The position numbers were made by a program, and so were the translations under genes. Positions 1 through 8,399 of a stretch of 18,713 nucleotides of DNA are shown in pieces. Origin of the DNA: a virus (taxonomy: Duplodnaviria; Heunggongvirae; Uroviricota; Caudoviricetes); IMG/VR virus record IMGVR_UViG_2663762939_000014; one strand, given 5' to 3'. The notes under the pieces were generated by a model. It was not told the DNA's origin. It ran no database searches and saw only the letters and a list, made by a program, of their open reading frames with translations. The first letter of the stretch is position 1. Each line of letters opens with the position of its first letter.

Positions 1-288
1 TTAACGGATCAACATCCAGATCAGCAGACACGCCACCACCGGCACAGCAAAATCCATCAGGCTTGCCACATCCCACACGCGCGGATCAAAACCGCCCCAC
101 CACGGCATGTTAATCCTCTTGCCATGCCCAAACATTTCAATCCAGCGATATTCTGCCTGGGTGTGTTCACGCGCAATGAAGAACGTACAACCGGCTATCG
201 CACCGTAAGCCCAGTTTCCGGTAAAAAGACCAGCCAGTACCTGCACCGCTACGGCACAAAGCGCATGAAGTATCGACGTGATATCCAT
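1..288 (-). CDS. hypothetical small integral membrane protein (95 aa)
   Basis: ATG at 286-288 with AAGGA about 6 nt upstream; stop at 1-3; hydrophobic segments ILHALCAVAVQVLAGLF, AYGAIAGCTFFIA and LMDFAVPVVACLLIWMLI suggest 2-3 TM helices; starts 10 nt after the upstream ORF stop; no family recognised. Confidence 0.5.
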   Translation of the reverse strand: MDITSILHALCAVAVQVLAGLFTGNWAYGAIAGCTFFIAREHTQAEYRWIEMFGHGKRINMPWWGGFDPRVWDVASLMDFAVPVVACLLIWMLIR

Positions 289-297
289 CTGCTATCC

Positions 298-576
298 TTA
301 AAACCACTCCCTGAGCGGGCGCTCTGGTGTAACCACCCACTCACGGAACACGGAATCATCAAATCCATCGTCAAGAAGACGGATATTAACAAAGTACCCT
401 TCGTTTCGCGTGTATTCTGGTTCTCCGTCATCAGAAACATCTGTCTCCCTGAACGTAAAACCAATCTCATCAACCAGAACGGCATTCTGCAGCTCTTCGT
501 CCTCTTCCCAGTTAAGTTTCCTGAGAAATGCCCTGAAATCTGCTTTATCACTGAAACGCAACGTGAAATCTCTCAC
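298..576 (-). CDS. hypothetical small acidic protein (92 aa)
   Basis: GTG start at 574-576 overlapping the tail fibre stop (GTGA); GGGGAGG about 7 nt upstream; 24 Asp/Glu versus 12 Arg/Lys; no family recognised; not similar to lambda Tfa as I recall it. Confidence 0.5.
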   Translation of the reverse strand: MRDFTLRFSDKADFRAFLRKLNWEEDEELQNAVLVDEIGFTFRETDVSDDGEPEYTRNEGYFVNIRLLDDGFDDSVFREWVVTPERPLREWF

Positions 577-1838
577 TCCACAACCTCCCCAAGCTGCGCA
601 TCTGTTAGCTCTTTATGCCAGAGACGAAAATTCCTCACATGCCCAAATAAATGGCGTAATCCTGCTGTAGTTTGTCCACCAATGCGAATGGTTGCTGTAC
701 TCCGGATATATTCCCATTTGGTTTTAGTTTCGCTGCTTAACTTACCGTTACTGACTACACATGTGGACCGTTCGGACTTTACCCGCATACCAATAAGCAT
801 TTTTTCCAGCCCGGCATTTTCATTTATTCGTCGGTCTGAACCACCTATATCGCAATACGGAAAACCGTCGTACCCACCTGATGAACCAAACCCCATTACG
901 ATCCCCGCATCTGCCTGATGCCGGTATGTGTCAAAAACACGCGGTGCTGCATTTGGCGTTTTATACCAGTTCTTATGTACCTCACAAAGAACCGTAAAAG
1001 GAAGATTATAAAGATTATTCTTAATCGGAACTGTAACCATATCGCTTGCCCGCGTTACCGGTGCCGTCCCCGTAACAATAAAAGATGATGCGCCTGTACC
1101 AGCCTCAATCTGTGGAGTGGTTACATCGAGATAATCCCCTGATGCAACCATCTGCCCTGTATCCGGAGAATACTGGACAAAACCACCAACCGTATTTTCT
1201 GTTGTATCTGCTTTTAATGTAGCCTCAAAAAATATCCAGCCAGTTGCATCATCCTTAACAGACCTTGCTGTAACACGGCTTGTCTGACCTGTCTTGCTAA
1301 TTATGCGGGTGGTAAGGTTCAGGTTTGCTGCTCCTATTGATGTCCTTACCTCCCCATCATAATGTTCAAATAAAATACGAACGGCGATATTATCAACTTC
1401 ACTTTTTACCCGACAGGATATAGTTACATGCTTTTCGTCCCCTGAAGTATCAACCCCTCCGGTACTCGAATACAGCCCGATAATGGTATGCGCTTTACTT
1501 GTACCAACAATCGAATCCTGTACGACAAACCGGCCATAATTAAACCCGAAACTATCTGTGCCTGTTTCTGTAACGTCCAGTGAAGTTGACTTATTCCACT
1601 TCGAAGGGTCTGTACTGTTCGGGAAGAAGTTCGTTCTTTGCCCCTCAATAAGCAGGCCATCACACTCAAATCGTGGCTCATTAATTTCCGCCGTTTTCAG
1701 TTCGCCAGATTTGTTGATATATGTTGCCGTTGATGCGCGACTGAAATTAACCTGTTTATCACTGGCAACCTGAACCACATTATCACCAATCTTCACTTTT
1801 TTATAACCCGGTGGATTTGCCCCTATATTTCCAGACAT
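573..1838 (-). pseudogene. stf: C-terminal fragment of IS2-disrupted side tail fibre gene (distal receptor-binding region); native sequence is 573-1806, the first 9 codons of the track ORF (MSGNIGANP) are IS2-derived
   Basis: Native reading frame continues from the N-terminal fragment once IS2 plus one TSD copy is removed; ORF start ATG lies inside the IS2 terminal repeat; C-terminal end FGHVRNFRLWHKELTDAQL resembles a concanavalin/LamG-like lectin fold (inference). Confidence 0.7.
1807..1811. repeat. IS2 target-site duplication copy (CCCGG)
   Basis: Identical 5-bp CCCGG immediately flanking both IS2 ends (1807-1811 and 3143-3147). Confidence 0.85.
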
Positions 1839-2728
1839 CTGTTATCACTTAACCCATTACAAGCCCGCTGCCGCAGATATTCCCGTGGCGAGCGATAACC
1901 CAGCGCACTATGCGGATGCCATTCGTTATAATGCTCGAACGCCTCTGCAAGGTTCTTTGCTGCCGTTAACCCGTCTGGTTTGGGCATGATACTGATGTAG
2001 TCACGCTTTATCGTTTTCACGAAGCTCTCTGCTATTCCGTTACTCTCCGGACTCCGCACCGCCGTGTTCTTCGGTTCAAGTCCCAACATCCGGGCGAACT
2101 GGCGTGTTTCATTAGCCCGGTAGCATGAACCATTATCCGTCAGCCACTCCACTGGAGACGACGGAAGATCGTTGCCGAAGCGGCGTTCCACCGCTCCCAG
2201 CATGACGTCCTGTACTGTTTCACTGTTGAAGCCGCCGGTAGTGACCGCCCAGTGCAGTGCCTCACGATCACAGCAGTCCAGCGCGAACGTGACACGCAGT
2301 CTCTCTCCGTTATCACAGCAGAACTCGAACCCGTCAGAGCACCATCGCTGATTGCTTTCTTTCACGGCCACTCTGCCTGTATGTGCCCGTTTCGATGGCG
2401 GTACAGCAGGTTTTCGCTCAAGCAACAGCGCATTCTGGCGCATGATCCGGTAAACACGTTTGGCATTGATCGCAGGCATACCATCAAGTTCTGCCTGTCT
2501 GCGAAGCAGCGCCCATACCCGACGATAACCATACGTTGGCAGCTCTCCGATAACATGGTGTATACGGAGAAGCACATCCGTATCATCAGTGTGACGACTG
2601 CGGCGGCCATCCATCCAGTCATCGGTTCGTCTGAGAATGACGTGCAACTGCGCACGCGACACCCGGAGACAACGGCTGACTAAGCTTACTCCCCATCCCC
2701 GGGCAATAAGGGCGCGTGCGCTATCCAC
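1823..2728 (-). CDS. insD: IS2 transposase OrfB (InsD, 301 aa), normally made as an OrfAB fusion by -1 frameshifting
   Basis: Protein matches IS2 InsD from memory (DDE integrase-like catalytic region); overlaps orfA at the A AAA AAG slippery site. Confidence 0.9.
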
Positions 2729-3051
2729 TTTTTTGCCCGTCCATATTCAACGGCTTCTTTGAGGAGTTCATTTTCCATCGTTTTCTTGCCGAGCAGGCGC
2801 TGGAGTTCTTTAATCTGCTTCATGGCGGCAGCAAGTTCAGAGGCAGGAACAACCTGTTCTCCGGCGGCGACAGCAGTAAGACTTCCTTCCTGGTATTGCT
2901 TACGCCAGAGAAATAACTGGCTGGCTGCTACACCATGTTGCCGGGCAACGAGGGAGACCGTCATCCCCGGTTCAAAGCTCTGCTGAACAATTGCGATCTT
3001 TTCCTGTGTGGTACGCCGTCTGCGTTTCTCCGGCCCTAAGACATCAATCAT
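2686..3051 (-). CDS. insC: IS2 OrfA (InsC, 121 aa, helix-turn-helix regulator)
   Basis: ATG at 3049-3051 gives [24 protein letters not shown]..., matching IS2 InsC; the track ORF start at 3096 is an upstream extension. Confidence 0.88.
2728..2734 (-). other. IS2 programmed -1 ribosomal frameshift heptamer A AAA AAG (orfA to orfAB)
   Basis: Plus strand CTTTTTT at 2728-2734 is AAAAAAG on the minus strand, in the orfA/orfB overlap (OrfA ...AKKW...). Confidence 0.75.
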
Positions 3052-3126
3052 CTGTTCTCCAATGACTAGTCTAAAAACTAGTATTAAGACTATCACTTAT
3101 TTAAGTGATATTGGTTGTCTGGAGAT

Positions 3127-3981
3127 TCAGGGGGCCAGTCTACCCGGAGAATAGCCCGTAATCATATCCAGCGAATCATTAAAGGGTATCCACACATCCG
3201 GCAGCGGCTGTAAAACATATCTGTACGGCTCTGCTGTCTGGTTTGCGTATTCTCTGGCAGCATCTTCACTTGCTTTTGCTGCCGTCTGGCTTGCTGCCGA
3301 TGCTTTCGCCGAGTTCGCCGCCGCTGTTTCGCTCACCTTTGCGTTGGCTTCACTGTCTTTGGCATTCGTCTCACTGGTTTTCGCTGCCGTCTGGCTGGAT
3401 TTTGCGTTTTTTTCGCTGGCCTTTGTGGCTGTCTCGCTATTTTTCGCGCTGGTTTCTGATTTTTTGGCTGCTGTCGCGGAGTTTGCCGATGCAGTCTGCG
3501 AGGCCGCTGCCGCCTGTGCGCTGTTAGCTGCATTCGTTTCTGAGGTTTTCGCCGCGTTCTTCGATGATGTCGCTGCCGTTTCGGATTTCTTTGCCGCCGC
3601 TGCACTCTGTGATGACGCTCCGGCATGACGTGCCACTTCATTCACCATCAGCTCAAAACGGCGCAGTGCCTCCGGACGAACATCATCCTCCGTCATGGCA
3701 CCGAGAAAATCATTCAGCGTACCTGGTCTGGAACCTTCATAGACGGTAATGGTCCCGGCATGTGAAGGTGGAAAACCTTCAACCAGCAGGGTGACGCTGT
3801 ACTGGCCATACTCAACATCCATGCTGTAACGCCCGGCTTCATCCGGATTTTCAGAGGCCACCGTGTTCACCAGTACCGTGGTGCTGTTACGCTTTGCCTT
3901 CAGTTGAATAGTGCAGTTCTGTATTGGTTTTCCCGCACCATCTTTCAGCACACCTGAGATTTTTACTGCTGCCATATCCAC
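3127..3981 (-). pseudogene. stf: N-terminal fragment of IS2-disrupted side tail fibre gene (Stf-like anchor plus Ala/Ser/Thr-rich repeats); likely true start is the ATG at 3973-3975
   Basis: N-terminus (M)AAVKISGVLKDGAGKPIQNCTIQLKAKRNSTT...EGFPPSHAGTITVYE matches the lambda/Rac Stf N-terminus; last residues (RLAP) and stop are read from IS2; GGAG upstream of the ATG at 3975. Confidence 0.8.
3300..3640 (-). repeat. Imperfect tandem coding repeats (Ala/Ser/Thr-rich, SETNAK-like motifs) in the tail fibre shaft
   Basis: Repeated GCTGCCGTCTGGCT / TTTTCGC-type units on the plus strand; encodes KKSETAATSSKNAAKTSETNAANSA... low-complexity repeats. Confidence 0.6.
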
Positions 3982-4039: not shown

Positions 4040-4639
4040 TCAGAACTTATAACCGACACCCACGATGAAACCGTCAGTGCGCCAGTCACCACTACCGGAG
4101 CCTTCATAAGCAATATCAATGGCCACGGATTCGGTCGGGTTAAACTGCACGCCAGCCCCCCACGCCAGAGACGTGTTGCTGTGGCGACCGTCATCACTTC
4201 CGGTCAGCACATCGTGCGTTTTCCCCTTGTTGTCAGTTACGCGGAGATAATCCCCGGAGAAAGTCGACACACGGCTGTAAGCCACACCCACCATCGCATA
4301 CGCGCTGAACCATTCATTCACGCGTACAGACGGCCCCGCCATCACGCTGAACCAGCGGTTACGCACGGAATCTTCATGCCAGCGGGTATCGCTGTAGTGC
4401 GTTTTTTGCTCATCCTCAGCATTGGCATAACTGAAGGACGTAATCAGCCCCAGCGCGTCCGTAAACTCATAACGGTATTTCACGTTAATCCCGTTCAGAT
4501 TATCGCTGCCGGGAGCGTTCGTACGGGCATGAAGATACCCCGCGCTCAGTGTGGACTGATGTTCAGACGCCCATGCAGGCGCACCGGATACGGACAGACA
4601 GATGGCTGCGGACAAAATGGCTGCACATAATTTACGCAT
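4040..4639 (-). CDS. lom: Lom, Ail/Lom-family outer membrane beta-barrel protein (199 aa)
   Basis: Near-identical over most of its length to lambda Lom as I recall it (MRKL.AAILSAAICL.VSGAPAWASEHQSTLSAGYLHA...GFIVGVGYKF); signal peptide present. Confidence 0.93.
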   Translation of the reverse strand: MRKLCAAILSAAICLSVSGAPAWASEHQSTLSAGYLHARTNAPGSDNLNGINVKYRYEFTDALGLITSFSYANAEDEQKTHYSDTRWHEDSVRNRWFSVMAGPSVRVNEWFSAYAMVGVAYSRVSTFSGDYLRVTDNKGKTHDVLTGSDDGRHSNTSLAWGAGVQFNPTESVAIDIAYEGSGSGDWRTDGFIVGVGYKF

Positions 4640-4706: not shown

Positions 4707-7700
4707 TCAGCTAATCGTGATGCCTGCAGTGGCTTTCTTCATCACAACAACCAGCAAATCGCTGATACTTGCTGTGGGATACCAGCCATTTACCCACCAT
4801 GCTGATACAGAAAACTCCAGCGTCATGTCGCCGCGACCAGCAGGCATATCAATAACACCACTGTAAACCAGCGTATTATCCATCGCGGTACGGTTATAAA
4901 TTTCAGCACCGTTTTTCTTCACTATCAGGCGGCATGACGAATAAGTATCGCTGTTCTCCCGCTCATGTCTGGCACCGCTGAAAGCCACCGCCGGAATAAC
5001 AATCTGCCGGTTAAACGGCTGATCGTCATAAACCCTGACGGTAATGGTTCCTGATGGCCAACGCTTCGGTGCACGGGAGTCACGAGGGAAAGCCTTACCC
5101 ACTGTTTTAACGAGATCGCCTTCAATCTGGTTTGCAGACAGTTTCCCTCTGATGACACAGTTCTTGTTAATGGTGACATTATTGAGCGTGCCGGTATTCG
5201 CCGTGATGGCTCCACTGATATCCGCATTGCGGGCTGTCAGCCTGCCATCCGGCGTCAGGGAAAACGTCGGAGGATTGCCGGATGACGTGATGCTCACCGC
5301 AAACAGTCGCTTCAGGAACACGTCGTTCATGAACAGCTGATTCCCCTGCGCCACAAACAGCGGCGTGGTGTTGCCGTTCTCCGGGGTAATCATCGCAATG
5401 CGATCGGCCTGCAGCAGAATGTTACTCAGGGTCTGACCATCAACATCCTCAATCCCCGCGCCAATCCCGGCCACATAGGGAATACCGTTTTTTGTTTTCT
5501 GCACCTTCAGCATATACATGGCATTCAGCTCATTGCGCGTGTCTGACTGAACCCGCTGGATTTGCTGTATGGTCACGGCCTGGTCACCCAGCTTTTTATC
5601 CGTGGTCGAGGTAATTTCACTCCCTTTTTTATCCACGTACTGGCGGACCTGTGCTATCTGTCGGGCGTTTTCTGACTGCCCCTGGCTGACAGTCTGTGAG
5701 ATTTCACTGCTCACCCGGTCCACTTTCTGGCTCACCTGCGCGATGGCCAGTGTCTGGTCCTCATTCTTTTTCGCAACCAGCTGCGTGAGGCTGTTTTCCG
5801 CCTTCCCGATTTTCCGGGTCACTTCTGCGATATCCGTGTCCATCCGCTGACGGATATCTTCTTCCAGTTGCGTGACCTCCGTACGCAGCGCTGAAGCATC
5901 AATGCGCTCTTTCAGTGCCTGGCCCAGAAGCGTCTCATCTATCAGCCCCCGGAAAATTTCCAGATACCCTTCACCATCATTGCTGGGCTGCCCGCTGGCT
6001 TCCACAAAAGCAGATTTTCCCACCAGGTTGACGCTTCGCACGTAAAACCAGAAATCCGTCCCCGGCTTAATCCGGCTCCCCTGGACAGTCCACTGACTGC
6101 CGGTCCCCAGATAACGGGCAGATTTTTCCACCTGTGCTGTGTTCGTGATGCGTTTTTCTGAGAACCAGAATTCAAACTGCACCGTCGGGTCATACACCGC
6201 CAGCACCGGTACCGCCGTTATCTGAAAATACCCCGGCGTCAGCTCAATGGTGGCGGGTTTTGCAGGCGCGTTAATCCGGAAGGTGGTGGTCGCAGGTTCG
6301 CCCTGCTGGCCGTAGCTGTTAATGGCCCGCACCGTCAGGGTGTATTCCCCCAGTGGCAGGCCGCTGAAACGGTGCTCCGTGTCTGCGGTGATGGCGGTGG
6401 TCACCAGTCTGGCATCCGTTCCCTTACCACTGGTCAGGCGCAGACTGAAGCGCACGCCCTTCACCACCCGCGGCGTGTCCCATTTAGCCTGCGCCAGATA
6501 CTGGCCGTCAGCTGCGCTCACCTCCACCGTCAGGTGCTGCACTGCCGGTGGGATAACGCTGTTCAGGGTGCCTGACTGCGGCTCAAAGCGGGCCCCGTTA
6601 TCCACGATGGCTTCTTTTTCAGGTACGTGCTGCACCGCCGTGATGGCAAAGGTGCCGTCCGTGTTTTCCCGGATGGAGACACAGCGGAACAGGCGACGAC
6701 GCAGTGACGGCAGGGAGAGTCCCCACACACCGTATGTCTCCACACCATCCGGCAGGGTGCTGACCTGTATCCGGTCAGGCGCGGGGTGTGCGGTGATGGC
6801 CACGCTCGCCGGCTTACCGCTGCCGTTAATCAGATTAACAGTGGCCGTGCCGGTCTCCGGCAGTGTCACCTCCCGGTCCAGCGTCAGGGTACGGCTGGCG
6901 GCATCGATGGACAGGACACGTCCGCCGGTCATGGTCCCGGCATAGTCGTTATCACAGATTTCAATGATGTCACCGGGTGTGTGACGCAGCCCCTGTGACC
7001 CGAGCGTGAAATCCACCGTCTGCGTTTCCAGCAGTTCGGTCTTTATCACCCACAGCCCGGCACGGTGGGCCTGACCGCGGCTGGTACAGCCGAACGCGTC
7101 CATCTTCAGCAGGTTGCGTCCGTAGCGCAGTATGGCTTCCGGGTCTTCCACCAGTTCCGTGGAGGTCTGCCAGCCGTTCTGCGGGTCGGTGTAATTCACC
7201 TCCACCGCCGTGTGCCGGTCCTTCAGGGCACTGAAGCTGTAGCGGAAACCCACGCCGTTATCATCCACCACCACATCGCTGCTGGTGTACGGCCACACCA
7301 CATCCGACGGGCGGTCCTGAACGAACGTCAGCGTCTGACCGTTCCATACCGGCATACAGCGCATCGCAGAGCAGAAATCACTGAGAACGTCCCACGCCTT
7401 ACGCTGTTGTGCCAGGTACGCATTAAAGGTCATCCGCAGCTCGGTCCCCCCGAAACCATCCGGGACCGTCTGGTCGCAGTACTGCCCGATGGCATACAGC
7501 GCCCACTTGTCCACATCCGCCGCCCCCAGACGTTTTCCCATGCCGTAGCGCGGGTGAGTCAGCATGTCCCACAGACACCAGGCCGGGTTGTTGCTGTATG
7601 CCGGTTTCAGGCTGCCGTCCCAGATACCACTGTACGTGCGTTTTTCCGGGTCATAGTTTGACGGCACCTGGATGATGCGACCGCGGATATGGTAGTTCAC

Positions 7701-8399
7701 CGTCATCTGCTGGCCGCCGAACTGCTCCGCATCCACCTGCAGCCCCACAATGGCCGTGTTCGGGTAGCACTGTTTCACATCGATGATTTCGGTGTATGAC
7801 GACCACAGCGTCTTATTCTGCAGCTGGTCCGTGGTGCTGTCCGCCGTCTCCCTGACCATCCGGATGTTAAAGGGCCGGGGAGGCAGATTATCCAGAATCA
7901 CCGAGGCCAGGAACTGCGAGGTGGTCTTGCCGTTAATGGTGACATCCTTTTCCGTCACCCAGCGGCCATTACGCTGTAACTGAATCAGAATCCGGACAGA
8001 GGAAGGATTACGGTCGCCCTTTGACGTGGTCTGCACCAGTGACTGCACCCCGAAGGTAACCCGCAGGCGGTCAATGTTCGCGGACGTAATGGTGCGCGTC
8101 ACCGGTTTTGCCTTCGTCACTTCCACGCCCAGTCCGGTTTCAGCTCCGGAGGACTCAAAGCCTTCCGGTGGTGTCTGCTCCTGCTCCCCGGCACGCCAGA
8201 CCGCAGTCACACCGTGTATCACGGGATTACCGTCCGTGTCCGTCAGCGGGGTTTTGTTCACCAGAATACTCTGCAGTCCCTTCACCGGACCTTCTATCGG
8301 TCCCTCACCAATCGCATCAATCACACTCATCATCTGCGTGGATTTGAGATTATCCTTCGCCTCACGAGGCGTGTGTGCCTTACCGCCACCTTTTCCCAT
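4707..8399 (-). CDS. J: Tail tip central fibre / host specificity protein J (1230 aa)
   Basis: Collinear similarity to lambda J from the N-terminus ([19 protein letters not shown]...[14 protein letters not shown]) through the fibronectin-like region; longer than the ~1132-aa lambda J as I recall it, with an extended coiled-coil segment and a divergent C-terminus. Confidence 0.93.

Follow-up and report, generated by a model that had tools for sequence, protein, structure and literature searches.

An IS2-inactivated lambdoid side tail fiber gene ending in a widespread lectin-type cassette

Side and lateral tail fibers decide which bacterial strains can be reached, through O-antigen or capsule, by a phage or by a lambda-derived delivery particle. 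Here, we describe the side tail fiber gene (stf) of a lambdoid prophage within an 18,713-nucleotide stretch of DNA (hereafter the window; IMG/VR record IMGVR_UViG_2663762939_000014, Caudoviricetes), in which the gene is interrupted by the insertion sequence IS2. It is probable that the uninterrupted gene encodes a fiber consisting of a collar that attaches to the tail, a heptad-repeat shaft, and a lectin-type tip, here termed the cassette, that binds glycan reversibly. The cassette is common, has been catalogued (PHROG 1419, NF048003), and has already been remarked on in print; the window locus is an IS2-killed copy of a common, annotated lambdoid side-fiber allele and an instance of textbook tail-fiber modularity. 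As such, it leaves our understanding of that modularity unchanged, and what interest remains attaches to the lectin-type cassette and to its small partner, a protein of 92 amino acids, rather than to this locus. The window nevertheless offers a natural case in which the module borders are cleanly visible, and it shows that the 92-amino-acid gene is part of the module.

The stf copy in the window is inactivated by IS2. The element lies on the minus strand, as does stf, measures 1331 bp, and carries the canonical IS2 termini (TAGACTGGCC... and ...GGGGCAAATCCA); read from 3142 down to 1812, its first letters are TAGACTGGCCCCCTGAATCTCC and its last are ...ATATAGGGGCAAATCCA. Its imperfect inverted ends (33 nucleotides, 79% complementary), its two overlapping transposase open reading frames (ORFs), and the 5-bp direct duplication on both sides (CCCGG on the plus strand, at 1807–1811 and 3143–3147) complete the identification, and the same element in relatives bears the Prokaryotic Genome Annotation Pipeline label “IS3-like element IS2 family transposase.” In the window, the reading frame that opens at the stf start encodes just 284 amino acids, comprising collar and shaft. 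Deleting IS2 together with one copy of the duplication, so that 3981..3143 is joined to 1806..573 on the minus strand as an initial annotation of this DNA had proposed, yields 2073 nucleotides that are open throughout and encode 690 amino acids from a GTG at 3981, or 688 from the ATG at 3975 that is the RefSeq start. The rejoined gene differs from the uninterrupted allele of Escherichia coli SW070919 at 3 of 2067 nucleotides (one amino acid), and the junction is identical. Thus, no bases were lost at the junction, and the insertion was clean and evolutionarily recent.

Intact alleles, which the same annotation had suggested seeking in related prophages, were found there and in an isolated phage as well. 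RefSeq protein WP_182486402.1 (E. coli, including strains of sequence type 131 [ST131]) corresponds to an allele 99.9% identical in nucleotides, and Stf of Escherichia phage Lambda_ev243 (LR597639.1) is 99.3% identical over the cassette and 98.3% over the whole protein; both are followed by the same downstream genes and both are uninterrupted, whereas the window copy carries IS2. None of the complete genomes in the collection carries IS2 at exactly this stf site. Particles from the prophage of this strain, if any, would lack working side fibers, like laboratory lambda.

Two further observations concern the insertion. A 421-amino-acid ORF (573–1838, minus strand) begins at an ATG within the right end of IS2 and runs in frame through the remaining cassette; if the IS2 end drives outward transcription, a free, anchor-less head could arise from it. 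In addition, a relative (E. coli AVS0096, NZ_CP076344.1, 3564–6966; locus L002) carries an independent IS3-family insertion about 300 nucleotides deeper in the same stf allele, and insertion sequences also lie within related stf alleles of several other genomes, such that stf is apparently a repeated insertion-sequence target.

The proximal part of the fiber is of lambda type. The minus-strand ORFs run in the order J (4707–8399, 1230 amino acids), Lom (4040–4639), and stf, which is the position of Stf in lambda and the order also annotated in relatives. The Stf-like N-terminal anchor recognized in the initial annotation matches PF08400 (phage_tail_N) over residues 3–132 (E 3.8e-67; 224.8 bits against a cut-off of 26.6), and residues 3–159 are 74% identical to lambda orf401 by BLASTP. 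Of 5426 complete E. coli genomes, 4690 contain an anchor of this lambda type, K-12 with its stfR among them. In the cryo-electron microscopy structure of Ur-lambda, Stf residues 1–91 make up a collar around the gpV/gpM junction, and a linker leads from there to a coiled coil spanning residues 102–393 (PMC12617516). The shaft of the window fiber is likewise rich in alanine, serine, threonine, and lysine (A 31%, S 17%) and, as had been noted, repetitive, with a period of seven residues (identity 0.35–0.39 at lags 7, 14, 21, 28, and 35, versus 0.15 expected from composition). The repeat exists at the level of the protein; Tandem Repeats Finder found no tandem repeats in the shaft DNA. With about 145 residues, the shaft is probably a coiled coil, presumably trimeric.

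The window gene thus shares with lambda (Ur-lambda) stf its locus after J and lom, a homologous collar, and an Ala/Ser/Thr-rich heptad shaft, although the lambda shaft is about twice as long at some 290 residues. Where lambda has a gp37-like intertwined tip (the orf314 part) and the tfa chaperone gene, the window has the lectin-type cassette and the 92-amino-acid gene. A canonical distal Stf or T4 gp37-like tip was considered and rejected, as BLASTP against lambda orf401, orf314, and Tfa returned matches to the N-terminal 159 residues and the low-complexity shaft only; the cassette has no similarity to orf314 or Tfa (best E 2.9), which upholds the earlier view that the distal part is unrelated to lambda. 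The window contains no tfa, and stf has no Peptidase_S74 domain in Pfam. A tip of the T5/DT57C type was therefore also rejected: the tip of DT57C-type lateral fibers carries a C-terminal autocleaving intramolecular chaperone (PMC4728585), and the domain so described differs from the cassette, which gives no Pfam match to the Peptidase_S74 chaperone (PF13884). T5 pb1 and DT57C LtfA/LtfB resemble the window fiber in their lateral-fiber role, with O-antigen recognition ahead of the outer-membrane receptor, and differ from it in the autocleaved Peptidase_S74 chaperone of their tips.

Three marks of the cassette border coincide, namely, a shift in G+C content (GC), the limits of homology, and the conserved edges of the family. 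The cassette starts at residue 249–256, at EPYRYVLQPLPDVW, where similarity to lambda stops and similarity to the cassettes of other phages begins. Its GC is 0.447 against 0.55 in the shaft; the drop lies at about nucleotide 780 of the rejoined gene, some 60 nucleotides ahead of the IS2 site, and is complete within about 60 nucleotides. The AT-rich shift reported in the initial annotation is therefore real and marks the module border. The distal domain is longer than the 410 or so amino acids first proposed, at about 430–440, because it starts 22–30 residues upstream of the IS2 site. By the same token, IS2 was rightly placed close to the junction between repeats and distal domain, but codon 278 lies 22–30 codons inside the cassette rather than at its border. 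Within the cassette, residues 279–329 form the best-conserved block of the family (mean top-residue frequency 0.63–0.78). Conservation extends over the first 100 or so residues of the cassette, an inter-lobe strand (cassette residues 261–285), and approximately the last 25 residues, while the bodies of both lobes are hypervariable in the family conservation profile. Among E. coli alleles with a diverged remainder, the 5′ conserved block retains 94–97% DNA identity.

The module is not unusual and belongs to a very large family for which models already exist. Profile searches matched it at full length to PHROG 1419, “tail protein” (residues 205–687, 1183.9 bits), and over residues 330–531 to NCBIfam NF048003, “phage head spike fiber domain” or GTA_spike_fiber (E 8.3e-20; score 72.1 bits, cut-off 36; model positions 1–181 of 182); no Pfam model covers it. 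Full copies of the cassette allele occur in 296 of the 5426 complete E. coli genomes (about 5%), its carriers including ST131 strains, and 1224 genomes have related alleles. Among isolated phages, 225 records contain the cassette, which ends the lateral fibers of Dhillonvirus, Drexlerviridae, Queuovirinae, T5-like, and rV5-like phages and is carried by lambda-like phages as well. A protein library clustered at 50% identity contains 3103 clusters related to it. Among the 150 of these with the best scores, nearly all have a module that extends from PDVW... to the very C-terminus, and the N-termini ahead of it are very different in length.

One relative is Gp22, the proximal lateral tail fiber protein of the T5-like phage IrisVonRoten (Bas32), which has the same C-terminal cassette of about 430 amino acids at 61% identity and the same small gene after it; the N-terminal anchors and shafts of the PHROG 1419 fibers of IrisVonRoten, Dhillonvirus, Drexlerviridae, and Queuovirinae are different. 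The C-terminal “galectin-like domain” of Gp22 has been put forward as a possible additional receptor-binding domain (Humolli et al., 2025; PMC11990801). Elsewhere in the literature, publications on ev243 (Nesevirus) hold nothing relevant to the fiber, a 2026 receptor-prediction preprint that used hosts without O-antigen is silent on it, and the lambda chimeras reported in Nature carry other tips (P2, K1F, K5, and KL106). Four records attributed to other hosts, “Campylobacter phage” C13, C15, and C11 (MG065692.1, MG065654.1, and MG065652.1) and “Listeria phage” LM 4-11-1 (OR847733.1), contain coliphage-typical fiber genes with up to 64.5% identity to the cassette as well as the 92-amino-acid partner gene, and look mislabeled or contaminated.

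The cassette appears to begin with a short conserved beta segment, behind which two concanavalin-like sandwiches stand in tandem, one resembling CBM4 carbohydrate-binding modules (CBMs) and the head spike of gene transfer agents (GTAs), the other resembling pentraxins and LamG domains. AlphaFold2, supplied with an alignment of 83 sequences, predicts an all-beta structure (pLDDT, the score of the predicted local distance difference test, 93.4; predicted template modeling score, 0.90; pLDDT above 90 in lobe 1), in which the beta-sandwich jelly roll of the concanavalin A-like/LamG/pentraxin fold is recognizable. The lobe borders were set from profile-match ranges, secondary structure, and the conservation profile rather than from the model coordinates. 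The closest fold neighbor of the model is the carbohydrate-binding domain 4 of arabinanase AbnA (score 20.3), followed by the Pseudomonas phage Pa193 baseplate wedge gp46 (18.0), the lectin-like HCN domain of botulinum neurotoxin (BoNT; 16–18), CBM40 modules of sialidases (about 15), pentraxins (about 14), and laminin/neurexin LG domains (12–13), with catalytic members of the fold (glycoside hydrolase family 16 [GH16] and alginate lyase) at 11–12. Foldseek is concordant with these neighbors and adds tandem-repeat galectins. Its top matches Pa193 and E217 were rejected as tail-fiber counterparts, gp46 and gp45 being baseplate wedge proteins.

Searching the sequences of the Protein Data Bank (PDB) with the family profile gives a consistent picture. 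The best match is the head-spike fiber Rcc01080 of the Rhodobacter capsulatus GTA (RcGTA; E 2.3e-34, and 5e-6 with a single-sequence query), followed by Pa193 gp46 (5e-16), E217 gp45 (about 1e-15), and a gp17 tail fiber (7e-10). Lobe 1 further matches CBM4/CenC modules (about 1e-3), and lobe 2 matches C-reactive protein, BoNT HCN, CBM40, and an S-layer domain (1e-5 to 1e-3), so that the LamG-like end of the protein suggested in the initial annotation is borne out by both profile and fold matches. Like the cassette, Rcc01080 is a two-lobed beta protein, and it is homologous to lobe 1 and the conserved N-terminal segment; unlike the cassette, it sits on the capsid and not on the tail, a single chain joined by its N-terminal Leu-Gly repeat to a pentameric spike base. 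Experimentally, the RcGTA head-spike fiber binds capsular polysaccharide (PMC10218006). PDB entry 6TB9 was rejected as a template for the cassette, since the homologous GTA fiber is modeled there at residues 2–10 only.

Given this homology and fold, the most likely function of the cassette is reversible binding of a surface glycan. Capsule is bound by the nearest homologue for which data exist, non-catalytic carbohydrate modules are the best neighbors of the cassette in both fold and profile comparisons, the lobes are hypervariable, and the lateral fibers of related siphoviruses are thought to bind O-antigen as a primary receptor (PMC8594841); each of these argues for a glycan ligand. In the intact fiber, the collar would clamp Stf to the tail at the gpV/gpM junction, as in Ur-lambda, and the heptad shaft would mediate trimerization, with the cassette standing in place of the lambda gp37-like tip and Tfa chaperone. 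The conserved cassette edges may serve as both scaffold and recombination sites, and the hypervariable lobe bodies are the probable ligand surfaces. The lectin-like heads would attach reversibly to a surface polysaccharide that varies between strains (O-antigen or capsule) and would leave it uncut, and virions so concentrated at the cell surface would allow J to reach its outer-membrane receptor.

Several points weigh against this assignment. Pfam-A contains no Laminin_G or CBM match to the cassette at E ≤ 1. The AlphaFold2 model is of a monomer, and the predicted fold of the 92-amino-acid partner offers no functional clue. Recognition of the O16 O-antigen in IrisVonRoten has been attributed to a separate T-shaped fiber, Gp24 (PMC11990801), and not to this domain. 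Furthermore, many carriers were isolated on K-12, which lacks O-antigen, and the domain is hence at least dispensable there.

The last two of these points bear on what else the cassette might be. The BASEL paper places Gp24 on the proximal fiber that carries this cassette, and branched LtfA/LtfB fibers are established in DT57C. The cassette could accordingly be mainly a docking platform that, together with the 92-amino-acid protein, holds a second distal fiber and does not itself bind a receptor. Because the order of cassette gene, 92-amino-acid gene, and further fiber gene recurs in T5-like IrisVonRoten and IME178, Queuovirinae BRET and Dru_SM1, KarlBarth, and lambdoid PhiR49_1, this reading deserves some weight, but on balance we consider it unlikely. 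In contrast to those PHROG 1419 carriers, the window prophage has no further distal fiber gene past the small gene; neither do its intact relative L001, Lambda_ev243, and PhiR63_2, all three of which retain an intact cassette. Lobe bodies as hypervariable as these would also be unexpected in a conserved protein–protein dock, and the homologue in the GTA binds capsule from a terminal position.

The nature of the ligand raises two other alternatives. Protein ligands are frequent among LamG/LNS and BoNT HCN-type domains, and many carrier phages plate on K-12 without O-antigen, which would suit a cassette whose target is not a glycan but an outer-membrane protein, as OmpC was suggested to be for lambda Stf. 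This we regard as very improbable: capsular polysaccharide is what the experimentally studied homologue binds, the profile matches include the carbohydrate modules CBM4, CenC, and CBM40, and the extreme allelic diversity of the lobes is more in keeping with the variety of O and K antigens than with that of porins, while on K-12 the carriers reach their terminal porin receptor through a separate, J-linked receptor-binding protein locus. An equally slim chance attaches to the cassette being an enzyme, a concanavalin-like glycanase or lyase that degrades O-antigen or capsule in the manner of a tailspike. GH16 and alginate lyase do share the fold, at the lower end of the scores given above, but hypervariable lobes between conserved edges point to variable ligands and not to a fixed catalytic site.

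A broader and more speculative possibility, which we hold only tentatively and consider rather doubtful, is that the cassette and its 92-amino-acid partner constitute a self-contained, Tfa-independent plug-in module for receptor binding. Independent lectin heads would be displayed on a coiled coil in a collectin-like bouquet, as opposed to an intertwined trimeric tip, and the module would have spread over at least five coliphage lineages and GTAs; the 92-amino-acid protein, for which there is no solved fold neighbor, could then be a new fiber assembly or branching factor. Were this so, the conserved PDVWIPF... and ...RNFRIWH edges would offer natural joining points at which lambda-based delivery particles might be redirected to chosen O or K antigens.

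The two genes downstream of stf (Table 1), which the initial annotation suggested had been exchanged together with the receptor-binding module, part ways in this respect. The 92-amino-acid protein matches phrog_1361 (E 1.1e-40), a family encoded adjacent to PHROG 1419 genes. The gene has a GC of 0.47, low like that of the cassette, and travels with the cassette across phage families in conserved synteny. Translationally coupled to stf, it is a dedicated cassette partner that may act as an assembly factor, or as a connector to a second fiber where one is encoded. The exchange thus holds for this gene. It does not hold for the 95-amino-acid gene, whose membership in the mobile module was rejected on conservation and composition: its GC of 0.531 resembles that of the backbone, it retains 87% identity in lambdoid phages that share just 45% identity in the cassette, and it is missing downstream of the KarlBarth fiber gene and from non-lambdoid carriers. 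It is found in 75 phage records, 56 of which give full-length matches, these being almost all from temperate coliphages and mostly lambdoid. What phages actually exchange is the cassette together with the 92-amino-acid gene, and the 95-amino-acid gene is a putative lambdoid backbone or moron gene that may have a moron or exclusion function.

Remnants of the 3′ end of tfa, 80–87% identical and comprising its last 39 codons (20 in L012), lie just beyond the 95-amino-acid gene in relatives. The three-gene block therefore occupies the place of the lambda distal stf and most of tfa. No such remnant is present in the window, which ends at the 95-amino-acid gene, or in L001.

Table 1. Features of the stf locus in the window and tfa remnants in related loci (residues refer to the rejoined fiber; the stf stop codon is at 573–575)
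Feature	Position	Strand	Basis or remark
Gene for 95-amino-acid hydrophobic protein	1..288	−	“Putative membrane protein” in phage 21; PHROG 1443
Gene for 92-amino-acid acidic protein, conserved partner of the cassette	298..576	−	Start overlaps stf stop (ATGA)
Lobe 2, pentraxin/LamG-like sandwich, about residues 534–688 (predicted)	576..1040	−	Conserved ...LFGHVRNFRLWHKELTDAQL end
Lobe 1, “GTA head spike fiber” domain, residues 330–531, CBM-like sandwich (predicted)	1047..1652	−	Hypervariable body
Conserved N-terminal beta segment, residues 279–329 (predicted)	1653..1806	−	Conservation; ...FSRASTATYINKSG...NEPRFE..GLLIEGQRTN
Second copy of target-site duplication, 5 bp	1807..1811		CCCGG on plus strand
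IS2 (IS3 family)	1812..3142	−	Inserted in stf codon 278; canonical ends and length
IS2 orfB	1823–2728	−	ORF list, 301 amino acids
IS2 orfA	about 2686–3096	−	ORF list, 136 amino acids
First 30 cassette codons (EPYRYVLQPLPDVWIPFNDSLDMITGYSPG)	3143..3231	−	Homology start, GC drop; includes duplication 3143–3147
stf shaft, about residues 105–248	3232..3663	−	Heptad period, composition, GC 0.55
stf collar (tail-attachment) domain, residues 1–94 of 688	3694..3975	−	PF08400, lambda homology
tfa remnant, L003	5920–6036		
tfa remnant, L002	2851–2967		
tfa remnant, L010	4820–4936		
tfa remnant, L012	4105–4164		

Weaker or partial matches to the 95-amino-acid protein occur in Aeromonas, Halomonas, and Salmonella phages, and the match in Halomonas phage phiHAP-1 overlaps a putative tail fiber assembly gene. 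The J tail-tip protein of the window, at 1230 amino acids, is longer than the 1132 of lambda J and contains a long, apparently coiled-coil-like insert around residues 860–960.

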